Sequence record: PQ850618.1
DNA from: Escherichia phage ManiWeber_Bas99
Direction: 5' to 3' (one strand)
Length of the DNA stretch: 64,000 nt
The translations under genes and the position numbers were made by a program. Shown one piece after another: positions 31,652 to 44,716 of this stretch (positions are counted from its first letter, which is position 1; each line of letters starts with the position of its first letter). The notes under the pieces were generated by a model. That model was not told where the DNA came from, ran no database searches, and saw only the letters and a list, made by a program, of their open reading frames with translations.

Positions 31652-32512
31652 TTAAAACTCTTCTGCGTCGGTCGGAGTTTCATTGACAGGACCAGCGGCA
31701 CCGCTTGCTTCTTCCTGCTTGCTGCGGTCAATGTTAACATTGCCGCCAACTACGTCGTTGTGGAATGCCTTGGCGACTTCGTACAGGCCTTTGTCCTGCA
31801 CCAGACCTTCCAGCTCAAACTTCAGAACAGACCAGGTGTTGCCGTCTTTGGACTGGGATGCAGTGCCCATGCGAACGATGTTCATAAAGGTCGGCGGCGT
31901 TTTCAGACCCTGCGGAGTCTGAACTTTCTTCTGCTGCAGAGCGGTCATCAGCATGCGAGACGGCTTGATCATGGAAGAAGTCAGAGACAGCATTGCGCTA
32001 CCAAATTCACCAGTTTCTTCGTTCAACAGAATTACGAAGTGGTTGCGTGTATCTGCGTAGTAAGGAGATTTCTTCTCGTGCACCTTGCCGTTTTCGTCCG
32101 GCACGAATACCTTACCGTTGATCTCAACAGCGCGGCCTGCTGCGACTTCTGCATCAACGTGCTCTTTGGTGAATTCACCTTTAAAGCCTTTATCGTCGGA
32201 CTCGCGACCGCCCCAAAGAATGAAGGTGCGTTTGAATGCGCAAGGGATGATCTGCACGCCTTTCTTGCCGTCATACAACTCACCAGTAACGGTGTTGTAA
32301 AGCATGCCAGCTTTTGCGCCAGGAACGTGTTTCGGATCATCTTCGTCGACCATAGGAGACATCTTCTGCAGTACGACGATAAAAGGAATGGCATACGCAT
32401 CGGCATCGGCACCTTCAAAACCAGCGCCAAAATCGGTCATGTCGACAAAATCAGCCATAGCGGACATCTGGGTGTTTTTCACTGCAACTTCGGTGGTTTC
32501 TTTCTTAGACAT
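31652..32512 (-). CDS. ssDNA-binding / annealing protein candidate
   Basis: 286 aa; Gly-rich, acidic C-terminal tail ending ...TDAEEF as in T7 gp2.5-type SSBs; in the replication module. Confidence 0.4.
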   Translation of the reverse strand: MSKKETTEVAVKNTQMSAMADFVDMTDFGAGFEGADADAYAIPFIVVLQKMSPMVDEDDPKHVPGAKAGMLYNTVTGELYDGKKGVQIIPCAFKRTFILWGGRESDDKGFKGEFTKEHVDAEVAAGRAVEINGKVFVPDENGKVHEKKSPYYADTRNHFVILLNEETGEFGSAMLSLTSSMIKPSRMLMTALQQKKVQTPQGLKTPPTFMNIVRMGTASQSKDGNTWSVLKFELEGLVQDKGLYEVAKAFHNDVVGGNVNIDRSKQEEASGAAGPVNETPTDAEEF

Positions 32513-38887: not shown

Positions 38888-39439
38888 TTATACAGTGTAC
38901 GGAGTACCGTCTTGATTCAACCGCACGATGAATTTAAGGTCGACACCGATGATTTCACGAGTATCAAAGATTACATAGTTGTAACGACGCTGACCAGCAA
39001 TGTTTGGGTTGGTGTGAGAGTCGGTCACAACTTCCTGCGCAACCTGAATGCCTTCTTCTTTAAAGAACTTGCGCCATTCAGCAAGTTCAGCGGCAGTCAC
39101 GTGCATACCAAGATGGCTAACCTGATTGTCGTGCGCATCGATGTATTCGATGTTTTCGTGAATCCAGTTGCAACCTTTTGTATAGTCAAGAATTTCAAGC
39201 TCAAGAGGCTTACCAGCGCCGCCATCGGTGCCGTTGCCAGCCTGATAGTTGAAGCGCAAGTCAGCTTCGTTGGTGCAATCGCCGCGCTGACCCTTAAAGA
39301 CATCAGCTTCAAATACGCGACCAGTAGCAACAACGTGATCATGGAACCATTCTGTCAGGCCGATTTTAGCCAGGAAATTCTGTGCGCGCTGAGCACCTGG
39401 AATTGACAGGGCGATTTGTTCAATTTTAAAATGTGGCAT
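38888..39439 (-). CDS. hypothetical protein
   Basis: 183 aa ORF with no confident motif. Confidence 0.45.
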   Translation of the reverse strand: MPHFKIEQIALSIPGAQRAQNFLAKIGLTEWFHDHVVATGRVFEADVFKGQRGDCTNEADLRFNYQAGNGTDGGAGKPLELEILDYTKGCNWIHENIEYIDAHDNQVSHLGMHVTAAELAEWRKFFKEEGIQVAQEVVTDSHTNPNIAGQRRYNYVIFDTREIIGVDLKFIVRLNQDGTPYTV

Positions 39440-39459
39440 TTTGTTTCCTTAATTAAATA

Positions 39460-39630
39460 TTATTGATTAATTACTGTGTTGCCTTCGATGGAATAAGTCT
39501 CAATGGAACCGACGCGCTCGTGGTTAATCTTTGCGTTTTCGATTCTTATTACTTCAAATCCAACACCTTCTTGATCAATCTTCACTTCTGCTACGTCGCC
39601 AATCACTTCTACAACAACTTTGATAGTCAT
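39460..39630 (-). CDS. small hypothetical protein (56 aa)
   Basis: Fills the gap between two minus-strand genes; weak RBS; not in the ORF track. Confidence 0.3.
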   Translation of the reverse strand: MTIKVVVEVIGDVAEVKIDQEGVGFEVIRIENAKINHERVGSIETYSIEGNTVINQ

Positions 39631-39633
39631 GAT

Positions 39634-40317
39634 TTATTTCCCAAATGGAATATCAGTACCAGACATAAAGCGCCATGCGCCCGTAATTAAGATATGGCGA
39701 ATGAAGTCAGCAATTACTTGCGGCTCAGTCTCCAATCCATTCATCAGCGCCTTTTTCTGGTATTCAGCAGCATACTCAGGAGTCCAGCCGCGAGTCGCGC
39801 AAACAGCATCTTCAATCTGTTTGGACATGCCAGTACCACGTAGCTTATTAGGACTAATAGAAAATACCGTGATCCCGTATTTAGGCGTAAGCTCGTGAGC
39901 CATCTGCTTGCTAATCATGAGCGCAGCAGCCTTGGAAGCATTATAACACAAGCTGGATGTCATAGGAATATGCGCAGCGTTGGAAACGATATTGATCACA
40001 AAACCTTTGTTGTCGATAAGACTTTTCAGCGCGGCTTGAGTCGTGTTGACGAAAGAGAAGGCGTTGGTGTGCATAACGCGATTGAACTCTTCGTAGTTAA
40101 CATCTTCAAACCAGTTGTTGGAGTTGACGCCAGCACAGTTGATCAAGCCTTCTACATCATATGGGCTTAAAATTTCTTTCATCTGTTTCGCGTCGCGGAC
40201 GTCATATCCGTATGCTGAATCGATTCCAAGCACGTTATGACCGTAAGCGCCAAGGGTGTCAAAAATAGATTTACCAAGACCGGAATTGGAACCTGTTACA
40301 ACAATTACTTTTTTCAT
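39634..40317 (-). CDS. short-chain dehydrogenase/reductase (SDR)
   Basis: 227 aa; VTGSNSGLGKS (TGxxxGxG NAD(P)-binding) and YNASK (catalytic YxxxK). Confidence 0.7.
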   Translation of the reverse strand: MKKVIVVTGSNSGLGKSIFDTLGAYGHNVLGIDSAYGYDVRDAKQMKEILSPYDVEGLINCAGVNSNNWFEDVNYEEFNRVMHTNAFSFVNTTQAALKSLIDNKGFVINIVSNAAHIPMTSSLCYNASKAAALMISKQMAHELTPKYGITVFSISPNKLRGTGMSKQIEDAVCATRGWTPEYAAEYQKKALMNGLETEPQVIADFIRHILITGAWRFMSGTDIPFGK

Positions 40318-40382
40318 TTATTTATCCTTTTTGGACTTCGTTTCAATGAGATAAATATAACTCATCGAAACGCACAAGTAAA

Positions 40383-41255
40383 CTATTTATTGAAATTAAT
40401 ATTGTGGGTGTTGACGAGACGTTCACACATGGCGCTGTAAACACCATCGTCGTGTATAGAGTCTTCGTGCTTCAGGCCGCTGATTGCAAAGCGTGTAAGC
40501 TTGACAATCTTAAGCTCGAACAGATGCCACATGTGGTAGTCTTCCGGCGTTTTCAACGTTACGCCATTAGGGAAAAGCACCTGCATAACCTGGCCAACCA
40601 TCACGGCATTATCGCCATAGACAGCGTTGCGCTCACGGAAGGTTGCTGCCATTGCATCAAGAATATCGGCGGCAGTTGCCGGAGATTGTTCAACTTCCAC
40701 AGCCTTAGTCTCTTCTTGCCCTGTTGCGCTTGGATCAATTGCTAATTGTTGCACCACTTCACCTGCCTTGCAAAGATTAAATGTAAAAGCGATTTTATTT
40801 TGAGCAACGGAATTATAATACAATGCTTCATCTTGCATCCGCGCGAGCACGTCTTGTCGGTCGTCGAATACATTGATGATTCGATAATCGCCGTGCCGCA
40901 ATGCGTGCGATAGCCATGCAGATTTCATAATAGTTGATGGACGTTTGTCGCCATAGTCTCTCATCTTGATTGTAAATTCATCAAAAGGAAAAACATTGTC
41001 CAGACGTTCAAAAGTCACTTGTCTGTATTTTTCTGGCCTTGCAGTCCAATATTCAACCGCCTCACCGCGAAGAGATGCCGACTCTACTGCTGATGCAATG
41101 TGAGGATAGAACTGATCATAACCAATACCGCTGTGATAGTCATCATAGTCTGACAACGGACCTGCCACCTTGATGCGGTCTAAGCGCCAACGGTCATCAA
41201 ACAGCGTTCCGTCAAGGTCGAATACGTTTAATATTTGGTTATTTTTAATACTCAT
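40383..41255 (-). CDS. HAD-superfamily phosphatase fused to a domain of unknown function
   Basis: 290 aa; N-terminal FDLDGTLFDD is the HAD DxDGT nucleophile motif; C-terminal half unassigned. Confidence 0.5.
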   Translation of the reverse strand: MSIKNNQILNVFDLDGTLFDDRWRLDRIKVAGPLSDYDDYHSGIGYDQFYPHIASAVESASLRGEAVEYWTARPEKYRQVTFERLDNVFPFDEFTIKMRDYGDKRPSTIMKSAWLSHALRHGDYRIINVFDDRQDVLARMQDEALYYNSVAQNKIAFTFNLCKAGEVVQQLAIDPSATGQEETKAVEVEQSPATAADILDAMAATFRERNAVYGDNAVMVGQVMQVLFPNGVTLKTPEDYHMWHLFELKIVKLTRFAISGLKHEDSIHDDGVYSAMCERLVNTHNINFNK

Positions 41256-42061
41256 CCCTTTGACACTCCATCTTTAGCAACTGGATTGTTTGTGATTGGC
41301 GCGGCATCCCAAAACTGGATGCGCAACTCTTCTTGCTGTGCCGTGGTATCCATCCAATCACGATACCACGGGCAATGGGCTTTGCCATGACGAGGAAACG
41401 CGCATTTACCCATACCGATGCATTGCGGCTGTAGTAAAGGATTAGCCCATGGGTGCACCTTGAGGACTTCCGCAACCATTGCGCGAAATACTTCTTGATA
41501 CTCACCTTGTGTGCGCGTGCACAAGCGGTTTGACGCCATCTGCTGCAGCGTGCGCAAGTTGAACTTTGCCATGATATGCGTTTGCATATTAGAAGGCAAC
41601 ACGGCACGTGCATCCTGAATCTCTGCGCCAGCCGCGCGAAGTTCTTGATACAAAGCATCGATAGTCGCCATTGCATCATCCCATTTCTCTGCCAATGAGT
41701 GATGTCTTATGTGCACATCATCAAATGCATTTTCATCATTGCAGTCAGAAGGGTGCTCGAATGCCTTCGGACGAATCGCATCAAATGCAGAAGATTCCTG
41801 AGCGCGGCTGGTGCGTTCTTGGTATGCACCTGTGCGTGTGCGTACCATCTGATGAGTCATATTCTTTGATACAGCGGTGATGTCAAAGATATAGTCCACA
41901 AAGTCAAAAGGCGACTTGATGGTGTCAAGCATGTAGCGCCAATGCTCTTGCTTCTCTGATTCCGTCATCTCAGAGACAGGCTTACCAGTCATGCGCGTGT
42001 TCTTTGTTTCCAGCAAAAGGTCAAGTGCATCTTGGGTGTATCGAATTAATTCAACTTTCAT
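41252..42061 (-). CDS. thyX: flavin-dependent thymidylate synthase-like (ThyX family, variant motif)
   Basis: 269 aa; HQMVRTRTGAYQERTSR aligns with the ThyX RHRx7-8S signature but has Thr in place of His. Confidence 0.6.
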   Translation of the reverse strand: MKVELIRYTQDALDLLLETKNTRMTGKPVSEMTESEKQEHWRYMLDTIKSPFDFVDYIFDITAVSKNMTHQMVRTRTGAYQERTSRAQESSAFDAIRPKAFEHPSDCNDENAFDDVHIRHHSLAEKWDDAMATIDALYQELRAAGAEIQDARAVLPSNMQTHIMAKFNLRTLQQMASNRLCTRTQGEYQEVFRAMVAEVLKVHPWANPLLQPQCIGMGKCAFPRHGKAHCPWYRDWMDTTAQQEELRIQFWDAAPITNNPVAKDGVSKG

Positions 42062-42074
42062 TTTAATTATCCTA

Positions 42075-42521
42075 TTAACGGTAATTTACTAGTTGCTGAT
42101 CACCAGAGAAGGTGCAATGATAAACGAATTGTGCGTTATAAAGCAACTGAAAACTTTTCTTTGGTTCATTATTAGAACTCATTGATGTAAAGATTTCTGC
42201 ACCAGAACGATTTTCACCAATCAGGTTGATAAAGCCGCCAGTTGAACGAGGCTGAACGAAAGTGAAACGTTGCATCCACGGAGTGCGGTTGGCACCTTTC
42301 CCTGTGAATCCTTGAATCTGAATATTCAGGCCTTCTTGCTCGTTCACACCGATGTAAGTGGTAATTGTTGCGCCAGTCGTTGCTGCGGTCTTGCCGTCCA
42401 TCGCTTCGCAATCGTAAACAGCGATTGAATCTGAAGTACGGACAGCGGCTTCAGTCGCTTCCATATACATGGTTCCGAGAATAGCAGTTGCGGCAAGCGC
42501 GATTCCAGTGATTCGTTTCAT
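42075..42521 (-). CDS. secreted protein of unknown function
   Basis: 148 aa with N-terminal signal peptide MKRITGIALAATAILGTMYMEA. Confidence 0.5.
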   Translation of the reverse strand: MKRITGIALAATAILGTMYMEATEAAVRTSDSIAVYDCEAMDGKTAATTGATITTYIGVNEQEGLNIQIQGFTGKGANRTPWMQRFTFVQPRSTGGFINLIGENRSGAEIFTSMSSNNEPKKSFQLLYNAQFVYHCTFSGDQQLVNYR

Positions 42522-42586
42522 TTTCGTTTCCTCTATGAGTTCTGCTTCAATGATTAAAGTATACGCCCATTGAAGCAGAAAGCAAA

Positions 42587-43582
42587 TTATTTATTAGCAA
42601 TATAAGCAAATTTTTGATAGTTATTTGCTTTGATGAGTTTTTCAACTTCAACAAGGTCATGAGCAACGTCATCAAGCAAAATGTTTCGCCAAGTAGCGAA
42701 TCGACCGACACTAAATACGTTCAAATCCATGGTCAGCTGTAGGAGTAGAGCGTGTCGCAAGTCTTTCGGAATGTCGACAATCTTGCCATACTTCTGGTCG
42801 ACCTTTTCAACTTCTTCGAGAGCGATGTCACTCCATGAGAGGCCAAAGGCCGTCAACACTTCGTCGACTTCTGCGCGCAGCTTGATGTCACGGTAACGAG
42901 TAATGCCGCCAGCGGCTTCAACTGCGGCTTCACTTACGCTAACCAAAGGAATTGTTTCAATGATCAGCGTGTCACCAGTGATTGATGCGCGGTAAGTTCT
43001 GACGGAGTAGTCAGGAAAGTAAATGGTTTGATACAGTTCACACTTGCGTTTAATCTTAAAGCGGTAAACACGAATGTTTGCCTTGTCGAATGAGAAATCA
43101 ATCTTTTGATCAATCCCAGCAAGCTTCATTATGACTGGCAGCGGCGATGTGTTGATGATTGGCGTCTCGCTATAGCCGCAAAGAGTATCAACAGGAGTAT
43201 TAAAGAATATGCGGTCACCCAGTTTGTCGACAAGCTGATCATAAAAGTCATCAGGCGCAATATAACGCGTTGCAGTTTTAAGCTTCATGATTGAACGGCT
43301 GCCAAACTGATTGGTGACCTTCATGGAATACATATTGGCAAGGTTGATTGGGCAATGGTCGTGGTAGTAGTTGCCGCGAAAATACACAGCCTTGTCAACT
43401 GTCACGGCTTTAAAAGGGATTCCGGTAATACGGCTTACTTCTTCGCTGCGAAAGCGTAGCAATGCCTTGTGCTGTGGCGCTCGCTCCCCTGCTTCGTACA
43501 CAATAGAGTTCGGGAAGTGACACGCGGTAATAAGTCCTGCCAAACCGCCGCCGATAATCATTACAGGTTGTTTCATGTTCAT
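42587..43582 (-). CDS. Rossmann-fold FAD/NAD(P)-binding protein
   Basis: 331 aa; N-terminal VMIIGGGLAGL dinucleotide-binding motif; substrate unknown. Confidence 0.5.
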   Translation of the reverse strand: MNMKQPVMIIGGGLAGLITACHFPNSIVYEAGERAPQHKALLRFRSEEVSRITGIPFKAVTVDKAVYFRGNYYHDHCPINLANMYSMKVTNQFGSRSIMKLKTATRYIAPDDFYDQLVDKLGDRIFFNTPVDTLCGYSETPIINTSPLPVIMKLAGIDQKIDFSFDKANIRVYRFKIKRKCELYQTIYFPDYSVRTYRASITGDTLIIETIPLVSVSEAAVEAAGGITRYRDIKLRAEVDEVLTAFGLSWSDIALEEVEKVDQKYGKIVDIPKDLRHALLLQLTMDLNVFSVGRFATWRNILLDDVAHDLVEVEKLIKANNYQKFAYIANK

Positions 43583-43717
43583 TTGTCCTTTGTGGGTGAT
43601 ATGAGAAGTATAATAGCTAAATTATTTTACAGCAACAAGTCATTTCTATTTAGTACAGACGAAAAAAAGACCCACAACAAGTGTGGGTCAATTACCGCTA
43701 TATAACCGTCCTACAGG

Positions 43718-44563
43718 TTATTCCGCTTGATCACCGTCTTCAGCATCGTCGTTGGATTCAACATCGACAAACTCGATGTGACCCATCTCTTCCAGCTTGC
43801 TCAGGTAGGAGCGAACGGAAGCGCCAAACAGTTGATCTTTAACTTTTTCGCCCAGCTCATCGATAGACTGTGCCACACCAACTTCGCCTTCTTTGATCGC
43901 CGCCAGAACGCGTCCACGGGTGGAATGCTCTTGCGGCTGGCTCAGGCCGTTGCCAGTGTAGATGAAGTGAGTGGCTTTTGCACGACGCTGACCGTTTGCC
44001 TTTTTAGCAGCCTTACGTTCTGCGATGGCTTTGCGACGTTCTTCAGCTTCTTTCTTACGCTGTTCTTTCTGCTGTTCTGCAGCTTCTTTAGCCGCAATCT
44101 TAGCAGCTTCACGCTCTGCCTTGCGTTTCGCTTTAGCTTCTTCTTTGGCCTTTTCTTTTTCGGCCTTCGCTGCAGCACGGGCTTGATCACGCTCTGCTTT
44201 CTTGGCCGCAGCCTGCTCAGCTTTCAGGCGCTTGGCTTCTTCTTTAGCCTTTGCCTTTTCGATTTCTTTTGCTGCTTTAGCGGCTTCACGCTCTGCTTTC
44301 TTAGCAGCAGCCTTTTCTGCACGCTCTTTAGCTTTCTTAGCTGCTTCTTCAGCACGCTTCTGAGCCTTCTCATCAGCAGCCTGCTTGCGTTTCAACGCAG
44401 CTTCTTCACGCTTGGCTTGTTTTTCCTGCTCACGCTTCTGGCGTTTTTCTTCGGCTTCTTTCTTTTTAGCCAGGCGTTTTTCTTCAGCCACGCGACGACG
44501 TTCTGCTGCGGCTGCTTGTTTTTCTTCTTTAGATAATACTTTGATTGCTTCGGCCATATTCAC
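43718..44563 (-). CDS. Lys/Ala/Glu-rich low-complexity protein with globular acidic C-terminus
   Basis: 281 aa; about 170 aa of KAEREAAKAAKE-type repeats, then a non-repetitive domain ending in an acidic tail. Confidence 0.55.
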   Translation of the reverse strand: MNMAEAIKVLSKEEKQAAAAERRRVAEEKRLAKKKEAEEKRQKREQEKQAKREEAALKRKQAADEKAQKRAEEAAKKAKERAEKAAAKKAEREAAKAAKEIEKAKAKEEAKRLKAEQAAAKKAERDQARAAAKAEKEKAKEEAKAKRKAEREAAKIAAKEAAEQQKEQRKKEAEERRKAIAERKAAKKANGQRRAKATHFIYTGNGLSQPQEHSTRGRVLAAIKEGEVGVAQSIDELGEKVKDQLFGASVRSYLSKLEEMGHIEFVDVESNDDAEDGDQAE

Positions 44564-44716
44564 AGTCCTTAAATAAATTAGTTTATTTTATATTCCCCGT
44601 TTGGGATAACTTAATTATGCCTTCAGTTGCCGCCAGTAGCAACTAAAAACTATGGCGGCAATGCCACTTTAATTAAACTGATTTTCAGTTTTATTTTTCG
44701 TAAATTTACGTCAACA

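Follow-up and report, generated by a model that had tools for sequence, protein, structure and literature searches.

In this work, we examined a 64,000-nt window of Escherichia phage ManiWeber_Bas99 (record PQ850618.1; "the window" denotes this whole stretch of DNA) and describe one minus-strand gene within it. An original prediction, made from the sequence, had described the locus as encoding a highly repetitive, Lys/Ala/Glu-rich protein with a globular acidic C-terminal domain. As seen in Table 1, the coding sequence (CDS) is flanked by a predicted promoter, which overlaps an inverted repeat, and by an intrinsic terminator, and its product comprises a long charged helix, a short basic arm, a winged-helix-like domain, and an acidic tail. 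The gene is real, conserved, highly expressed, and misleadingly annotated.

Table 1. Positions in the window of the gene, its signals, and the parts of its product
Feature	Position	Strand	Details
Inverted repeat TTGCCGCCA-N17-TGGCGGCAA	44627..44661	.	9-bp arms match exactly; brackets the -35 hexamer
Sigma70-like promoter TTGCTA-17 nt-CATAAT	44614..44642	-	consensus scan; predicted transcription start site near 44607
Ribosome-binding site AAGGA	44566..44570	-	read from sequence; 8 nt upstream of ATG
CDS	43718..44557	-	279 aa, 31.1 kDa, isoelectric point (pI) 9.6; TAA stop at 43718..43720; PHROG 4765
Single continuous alpha-helix with hendecad (11/3) basic seam	44000..44530	-	residues 10-186; AlphaFold2 model
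Linker with conserved basic motif G-x-RR-x-K-A-T-H	43970..43999	-	residues 187-196
Winged-helix-like domain, beta-H1-beta-H2-H3-beta	43763..43969	-	residues 197-265
Acidic C-terminal tail, predicted disordered	43721..43762	-	residues 266-279; 7 D/E, no K/R
Intrinsic terminator GACCCACA-CTTGT-TGTGGGTC + T7	43659..43689 (hairpin 43689..43669 + T-run)	-	after the stop codon

RESULTS

Start site and conservation of the gene

The minus-strand open reading frame (ORF) that had been predicted between positions 43718 and 44563 is present. However, position 44563 marks an upstream GTG codon, and the ATG at 44557 is almost certainly the true start, because its Shine-Dalgarno spacing from AAGGA is 8 nt, compared with 2 nt for the GTG, and because the GenBank records of relatives annotate the CDS as 840 nt, or 279 amino acids. 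A ribosome-binding site is also annotated at the equivalent position in phage Mansfield.

The 1.6 kb around the gene is 95 to 99% identical to the corresponding region of 28 Wifcevirus genomes (myophages of Escherichia coli and Shigella, 66 to 72 kb), vB_EcoM_WFC being the closest (98.8%). The window itself is from a Wifcevirus. Since these 28 genomes were sequenced independently, and since no indels were found among the three Wifcevirus orthologues compared, the concern that the repetitive region could be an assembly artifact is ruled out. The same three orthologues exhibited 16 to 24 synonymous versus 0 to 2 nonsynonymous changes, and dN/dS ranged from 0 to 0.03 for the whole gene and also for the helix alone. 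Therefore, strong purifying selection acts on the gene, including its low-complexity part.

The protein matched PHROG 4765, a family of unknown function, over its full length (residues 1 to 279; E 2.4e-84). No Pfam family was matched by the whole protein at E<=1, and NCBIfam gave only subthreshold low-complexity matches, with no TolA model. The GenBank labels of the gene vary among "TolA," "structural protein," and "hypothetical," and the original record of phage 14-1 calls its ORF66 "hypothetical" only.

Transcription unit and expression signals

The predicted promoter falls inside a 159-nt gap downstream of a Dda-like helicase gene. The pattern TTGCnn-17-nATAAT was read by eye at the same site upstream of the homologues in MyoSmar, Gekk3-15, XcP1, and BcepF1. 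On the other side of the gene, a GC hairpin with a T-run was observed in all seven homologues inspected, and a terminator is annotated at the equivalent site in Mansfield, phiKT28, LBL3, and XcP1. The same layout, with a 110- to 160-nt upstream gap that contains TTGCnn-17-nATAAT and a terminator directly 3' of the gene, was seen in Pbunavirus, Myosmarvirus, Bcepfunavirus, Carpasinavirus, one Aeromonas phage, and one Vibrio phage. Judging from these flanks, the gene appears to be a conserved single-gene transcription unit with its own predicted promoter and terminator.

The inverted repeat at 44627..44661 may be an operator, or it may form a hairpin that ends the helicase transcript. A shorter pair, AGTTGC-N8-GCAACT, is nested inside it. 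Different inverted repeats occupy the same position in other genera. We observed no enrichment of the motif elsewhere in the window, and the excess of 9-mers with one mismatch falls mostly within coding regions.

The codon adaptation index (CAI) was calculated with the Sharp and Li codon weights for E. coli, and 75 ORFs of the window were ranked. The gene ranked first, with a CAI of 0.599 (window median, 0.294; major head protein, 0.525), and this codon usage suggests very high expression. The runner-up (0.566), also above the major head protein, was a 286-aa protein encoded at 31652..32512 on the minus strand; it matches PF23977 (Pam3 phage gp34-like) and phrog_2402, has no assigned function, and is apparently very abundant.

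At the protein level, liquid chromatography-tandem mass spectrometry has identified the orthologue vB_Eco4M-7_83 (annotated as "TolA protein"; 31.1 kDa) with 7 peptides, a coverage of 25.8%, and a score of 1197.6 (PMC7048862), which disposes of the possibility, raised with the original prediction, that the ORF is not expressed. An in silico tryptic digest showed that just 7 peptides of at least 7 residues are possible, with a maximum coverage of 32.6%; thus, the detection was near saturating.

A long N-terminal helix with a basic seam

To model the protein, AlphaFold2 (AF2) was run on an alignment of 8 sequences. As seen in the resulting models, residues 10 to 186 form one uninterrupted helix of 177 residues, approximately 26.5 nm long, with a predicted local distance difference test (pLDDT) score mostly above 90. 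Residues 9 to 188 consist of Lys, Arg, Glu, Asp, Ala, and Gln at 94.5% of positions, contain neither Gly nor Pro, and carry a net charge of +25. The helical segment includes 40 acidic residues and has a net charge of +26 over 185 residues (22% acidic, 30% Ala). The description of the protein as highly repetitive and Lys/Ala/Glu-rich therefore stands for the composition and for a charge register at the protein level, but the DNA itself is not truly repeated in tandem: Tandem Repeats Finder identified one 2-copy array of 15 nt only, and the dispersed direct repeats are 61 to 90% identical.

Apolar residues make up approximately 5% of the helix, with 9 hydrophobic residues within the first 190 positions. 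A canonical heptad coiled coil, for which a check had been proposed, was rejected, since no apolar periodicity of 3.5 residues was found in the helix (the power at 3.5 was below the shuffle mean); AF2 gives one long helix. Oppositely charged pairs at i/i+3 and i/i+4 numbered 71, compared with 56.3 +/- 5.7 in shuffled sequences (z, 2.6). The same enrichment was observed in 8 of 13 homologues (z, 1.6 to 5.2) and was near zero in BcepF1, Gekk3-15, P0005, and P0020.

The charges follow a regular register along the helix. Lys and Arg recur with a period of 3.68 residues (power, 4.27; 95th percentile of shuffles, 1.48), with Asp and Glu in antiphase (approximately 180 degrees). When the sequence is written in rows of 11, Lys and Arg lie at hendecad positions 0, 3, 7, and 10 through 16 hendecads, where acidic residues are nearly absent, and Asp and Glu fill positions 2, 5, 8, and 9. 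One half-face harbors 52 of the 65 Lys/Arg residues and has a net charge of +42, and the opposite half has a net charge of -17. The basic half-face is composed of Lys/Arg and Ala, with only one of the seven Leu, Ile, Val, Met, or Phe residues lying on it. An 11/3 register keeps such a seam straight along the helix axis.

Of 12 homologues, which come from six host genera, 11 showed a significant Lys/Arg period of 3.67 to 3.70 (equal to 11/3), again with Asp/Glu in antiphase and with differing lengths and sequences. All homologues have a helix with a positive net charge (+5 to +26). For this protein, such a seam with a hendecad register along one long helix has not been described previously; to our knowledge, a straight seam of 26 nm on a single helix is an unusual design for binding a polyanion.

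The C-terminal domain, arm, and acidic tail

Residues 191 to 279 have an ordinary composition and a pI of 4.8. In the AF2 models, the domain core is confident (pLDDT of approximately 90), and the terminal acidic stretch, DVESNDDAEDGDQAE, lies in a tail that is disordered (pLDDT below 50) and acidic at 7 of its 14 positions. These observations agree with the globular acidic C-terminal domain that had been proposed from the sequence.

The modeled domain exhibits the winged-helix topology H1-beta-H2-H3-beta(-beta). Searches of the PDB with the single sequence and with a 38-sequence profile gave nothing below an E value of 0.05; the best profile matches, all nonsignificant, were an HU-like protein (0.057), YejK (0.12), and H1.0 (0.66). 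Foldseek found nothing significant in the PDB (best E value, 0.4), and in BFVD it returned only family members and a few uncharacterized phage proteins. Because Pfam, the PDB profile search, and Foldseek gave nothing significant, we place the modeled domain, which is winged-helix-like, outside every described family.

Across 38 divergent domains, residues R192, Q209, S212, R214, R249, K254, and L255 are invariant or nearly so. R192, nearly invariant in these 38 divergent family members, lies in the basic motif of the linker, and this motif is found in all phage homologues. Every homologue also has an acidic tail, which varies in length and often ends in -AE or -GE.

Family and genomic neighborhood

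In homology searches with the C-terminal domain alone, which had been suggested as a check, the last 100 residues matched PHROG 4765 (E 5.7e-49). A tblastn search with the domain identified 356 phage records. Pseudomonas phages account for 293 of these (Pbunavirus, approximately 52 to 54% identity), and others are from Serratia, Pantoea, Burkholderia, Xanthomonas, Vibrio, and Aeromonas phages; no homologue was found among 72,556 plasmids. When 1.84 billion cluster representatives were searched exhaustively with HMMER, only 45 clusters (50% identity) were recovered. By these searches, the family appears to be small and restricted to Pbunavirus-like phages.

The close members share one plan, namely, a charged helix of approximately 20 to 190 residues, an RRxKATH arm, the winged-helix domain, and the acidic tail. 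In the most distant members, another N-terminal domain (phrog_4730, which has no Pfam annotation) stands in place of the helix. The gene keeps its place beside the gene for the Dda-like helicase, within a module for replication and nucleotide metabolism. In the very distant metagenomic phage L017, the order is winged-helix protein, 323-aa protein, ThyX, PNKP, short-chain dehydrogenase (SDR), RNase T-like exonuclease, and Pol III alpha. Since a distant member with another N-terminal domain keeps this syntenic slot, the winged-helix domain is the conserved core of the family, and its association with the module for replication and nucleotide metabolism is old.

The tip of the stalk is variable across the metagenomic and phage homologues and may be lineage specific. 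A His-rich N-terminal tip (e.g., MSHGHHAHESGNHQHGINDPGHSHG) precedes the charged helix in P0005, P0006, P0009, P0010, P0015, and P0023, and XcP1 and P0020 carry Pro/Lys- or Pro/Ala-rich N-terminal extensions. In the distant family member P0043 (L016, 2267..3004), which has DUF932 and DUF2786/DUF7168 genes as neighbors, the N-terminal and winged-helix domains are linked by AKKAAAP repeats that resemble AlgP/H1-type repeats.

Directly downstream of the gene, a string of minus-strand genes spans 38888..43582. It is headed by a 331-aa Rossmann/flavin adenine dinucleotide (FAD) protein, which is UDP-galactopyranose-mutase-like and matches phrog_4828 and no Pfam family, and continues with ThyX, a HAD-PNKP phosphatase, the SDR, and a glyoxalase-like protein; Pol III epsilon and alpha come next. 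This downstream order is kept in L017 (8652..16401). The string could represent a pathway of nucleotide or DNA modification and, as such, a possible cause of the resistance of Wifceviruses to restriction-modification (RM) systems. A 148-aa ORF (42075..42521, minus strand) with a signal-peptide-like N terminus, MKRITGIALAATAILGTMYMEATEAA, sits between the genes for the FAD protein and ThyX; it matches no PHROG or Pfam family, and Pbunavirus has several small ORFs there instead.

Comparison with known systems

We compared the protein with TolA, the origin of one of its labels. Domain II of TolA is likewise a helical segment of approximately 200 residues that is rich in Lys, Ala, Glu, and Asp and free of Gly and Pro, and to this extent the predicted likeness to TolA domain II holds. 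However, neither homology, nor a membrane anchor, nor TolA domain III was found in the phage protein. A BLASTP match to E. coli TolA (47.7% identity, E 1e-32) appeared only with SEG and composition correction switched off, and no match was obtained with both on. The Kyte-Doolittle 19-residue maximum is 0.61, located in the winged-helix domain; in E. coli TolA, the maximum is 2.45, at residue 14. Moreover, TolA domain II lacks the 11/3 periodicity of Lys/Arg (best power, 0.40; 95th percentile of shuffles, 1.08) and is nearly neutral (+7 over 263 residues). TolA identity was therefore rejected, and the "TolA protein" annotations in GenBank are low-complexity artifacts.

The resemblance to linker histones that the original prediction had noted was retained in part. 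Like H1/H5, the phage protein appears to be abundant and combines a domain of the winged-helix type, as in the globular domain of H1, with a long, basic, Lys/Ala-rich segment. Nevertheless, it is not a family member: there was no match to Pfam Linker_histone, H1.0 reached a PDB profile E value of only 0.66 over 25 residues, and the globular domain of Hho1p gave a Foldseek E value of 4.1. Whereas H1 has a polycationic disordered tail, the Lys/Ala/Glu segment of the phage protein is a mixed-charge helix (pLDDT above 90, 22% acidic) of much lower charge density, placed at the N terminus, and the tail is acidic.

KfrA-type proteins of IncP-1 and IncU plasmids, as described in two reports (PMC7821693, PMC7783346), also join a small DNA-binding head to a very long helical stalk rich in Ala and charged residues and are encoded on mobile elements behind their own promoter, which here overlaps the inverted repeat. 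In contrast, the phage head is C-terminal (N-terminal in KfrA), its stalk has a hendecad basic seam instead of a heptad coiled-coil signal, and its codon usage suggests very high expression. Membership in the KfrA family was rejected, as no match to KfrA_N (PF11740) or another Pfam family and no hit among the plasmids were obtained.

The stalk also resembles the ER/K single alpha-helices (SAHs) of myosin VI/X and caldesmon, which are long, rich in Glu, Lys, and Arg, free of Gly and Pro, enriched in charge pairs, and devoid of a hydrophobic seam. It differs from them in its 30% Ala content and in its charges, which lie on opposite faces in an 11/3 register rather than being wrapped around the helix. 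Among phages, small and highly expressed proteins of the early or middle replication module that coat or organize the genome include phi29 p6, SPO1 TF1, and phi29 p16.7. TF1 is HU-like, p16.7 has a transmembrane anchor and a homeodomain-like domain, and their folds are unrelated to that of the phage protein described here. No sequence or fold match to p6, TF1, or p16.7 emerged in our general searches, none of which was aimed at them.

Detection in virions

Proteomics of virions had been proposed as a check, and published data bear on it. Orthologues were detected in CsCl-purified virions of two Wifceviruses, vB_Eco4M-7 and ECML-117, the latter with 2 peptides (PMC7048862), and abundant nonstructural proteins were detected as well. 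One of these is the glyoxalase-like protein, encoded here at 38888..39439 on the minus strand (CAI, 0.499), which was represented by 8 peptides with a score of 718 (PMC7048862). Such detection reflects either carryover of abundant, soluble proteins into the virion preparations or genuine packaging of several "metabolic" proteins. The "extra" virion proteins track genes of high CAI. Since a helicase was detected in addition to the glyoxalase-like protein, and since the extras follow high CAI, simple carryover of abundant proteins is at least as likely as packaging. In the Pbunavirus SCUT-S1, 31 proteins were listed for DNA-free ghost particles, including the adjacent helicase and not including ORF69, the orthologue. 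Presence in virions and absence from ghosts would be expected of a protein that accompanies the DNA.

DISCUSSION

A proposed architectural protein associated with a polyanion

Our preferred reading, to which we assign a probability of roughly 0.4, is that the gene encodes an abundant architectural protein that combines a "head" with a "stalk" and associates with DNA or another polyanion. The class that suits it best is that of the head-and-stalk DNA-associated proteins, as a variant of these. The suggestion of a DNA-coating or nucleoid-organizing protein made in the original prediction is, in this form, the leading one. Its indirect support lies in the winged-helix-like head, the seam of positive charge on the stalk, the very strong signals of expression, and the location of the gene within the replication module. 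Nucleic acid binding, the identity of the target, and a role in organizing, protecting, or packaging the genome are what we infer from these features.

In the proposed mechanism, the C-terminal winged-helix domain and the RRxK arm would form the head, a nucleic-acid-binding module, in which the invariant R192, Q209, S212, R214, R249, and K254 are of the type that may touch nucleic acid backbone and bases. The N-terminal 177 residues would form the stalk, probably as a stable single helix rather than as a coiled coil. Its straight positive seam, with the half-face of +42, would extend over the full 26 nm and could follow a polyanion of linear or flat shape or form a bridge across it; the replicating phage DNA would be the most plausible target. 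For the acidic C-terminal tail, the probable role is to modulate this binding or to recruit a partner. The gene would be transcribed alone, from a host-type promoter to its own terminator, and the protein would be abundant and act stoichiometrically. Further observations support this reading: the annotation of the complete Bas101 genome contains no single-stranded DNA-binding protein (SSB) or HU-like competitor, a distant phage keeps the syntenic slot even though the N-terminal domain of its homologue is another one, the domain has invariant Arg, Lys, Gln, and Ser residues, the stalk is positively charged in all homologues, and the mass spectrometry detection was near saturating. In addition, orthologues were seen in whole Wifcevirus virions but not in the SCUT-S1 ghosts.

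Nevertheless, several points weigh against an architectural DNA-associated protein. Among the weightiest are the acidic surface of the winged-helix domain, which is net acidic (pI 4.8) and whose third helix has a conserved KLEE, and the modest net charge of the relatives' helices, which amounts to just +5 to +14 in segments of 120 to 190 residues. The helix described here contains 40 acidic residues itself, and its charge density is far below that of histone H1 or protamine. The AF2 models rest on 8 sequences, and AF2 readily gives long helices for charged low-complexity sequences. Neither the PDB searches nor Foldseek returned a significant relative. With regard to the virion, the same mass spectrometry data included the nonstructural glyoxalase-like protein and helicase (PMC7048862), and the ghost data were obtained with another genus and by another method.

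Alternative explanations

The features of the stalk could also be those of a rigid spacer or adaptor in the replisome, that is, a passive ER/K-type ruler of approximately 26 nm whose head and tail bind proteins and not DNA. The SAH-like features (enriched opposite-charge pairs, no hydrophobic seam, and a single helix in AF2) and the conserved synteny with the helicase would suit such a role, and acidic C-terminal tails recruit partners in SSB-type proteins. However, a helix that varies from approximately 20 to 190 residues across the family is unlike a ruler, and a passive spacer would have no use for a Lys/Arg seam that many genera keep in phase through 16 hendecads. The N-terminal tip is not conserved, the helicase is not adjacent in L017, and the extreme expression signals suit stoichiometric coating better than an adaptor. 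We consider such a spacer, which the original prediction had also suggested, less likely than the main reading but still a serious competitor of it; the Dda-like helicase, a Pol III-like polymerase, a primase, or the adjacent FAD enzyme would be its partners. A KfrA-like autoregulator, in which the head binds the inverted repeat at its own promoter and represses it while the helix self-associates into filaments or scaffolds, is unlikely. The head with a long helix and the monocistronic unit do recall KfrA-type proteins as described in the two reports (PMC7821693, PMC7783346), the repeat brackets the -35 of the promoter, and helices could zip onto one another through their faces of complementary charge (+42 and -17). 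Against this stand the reversed domain order, the lack of a heptad signal, and the Pfam and plasmid searches, in which neither KfrA_N nor a homologue was found. Furthermore, the residues of the recognition helix are invariant, yet the inverted repeats vary from genus to genus, and some of these repeats resemble terminators of the upstream gene (as in BcepF1). The rest of the window shows no enrichment of the motif, and the top CAI in the window is atypical of a repressor.

The virion data could be explained by an internal protein that is packaged and coinjected and shields the genome from host nucleases or restriction enzymes. This agrees with its detection in CsCl-purified virions of vB_Eco4M-7 (with the score given above) and ECML-117, with its absence from the DNA-free SCUT-S1 ghosts, and with the "structural protein" label in several Pbunavirus records. 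However, the same runs found abundant nonstructural proteins, the gene lies in the early/replication module behind a host-type promoter and not among the late structural genes, and the cryo-electron microscopy study of E217 built 19 gene products with no mention of an internal protein; overall, packaging seems to us unlikely. A TolA-like protein of the membrane or envelope, or a tether whose seam rests on anionic phospholipid while the head holds phage DNA, is very unlikely. "TolA" annotations exist, the straight face of 11/3 helices suits flat surfaces, as in apolipoproteins and alpha-synuclein, and the basic half-face consists of Lys/Arg and Ala. Nevertheless, a transmembrane segment, a signal peptide, and TolA domain III are all absent, the hydropathy maximum stays far below that of TolA, the similarity to TolA is lost under composition correction, and the seam is nearly without hydrophobic residues.

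Implications for Wifceviruses and their relatives

Wifceviruses are insensitive to nearly all tested RM systems, although no mechanism that protects their genomes is known, and they replicate very fast. A packaged and coinjected "chromatin" protein, whose head and 26-nm seam would coat the DNA in the capsid and upon entry, could explain this insensitivity in place of a base modification; we regard this as improbable, and the neighboring ThyX/FAD/SDR/PNKP cluster may be an alternative source of the resistance through DNA modification.

The gene is present in all Pbunavirus-like myophages, including phages used in therapy, and is apparently among their most strongly expressed genes. Clearing the TolA label removes a misleading annotation. 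If DNA coating or coinjection is true, it would bear on the fast replication of Wifceviruses and on their resistance to restriction. Overall, a winged-helix head on a helix with a hendecad basic seam leads to testable hypotheses about DNA coating, genome organization, and, possibly, protection from restriction in these phages.

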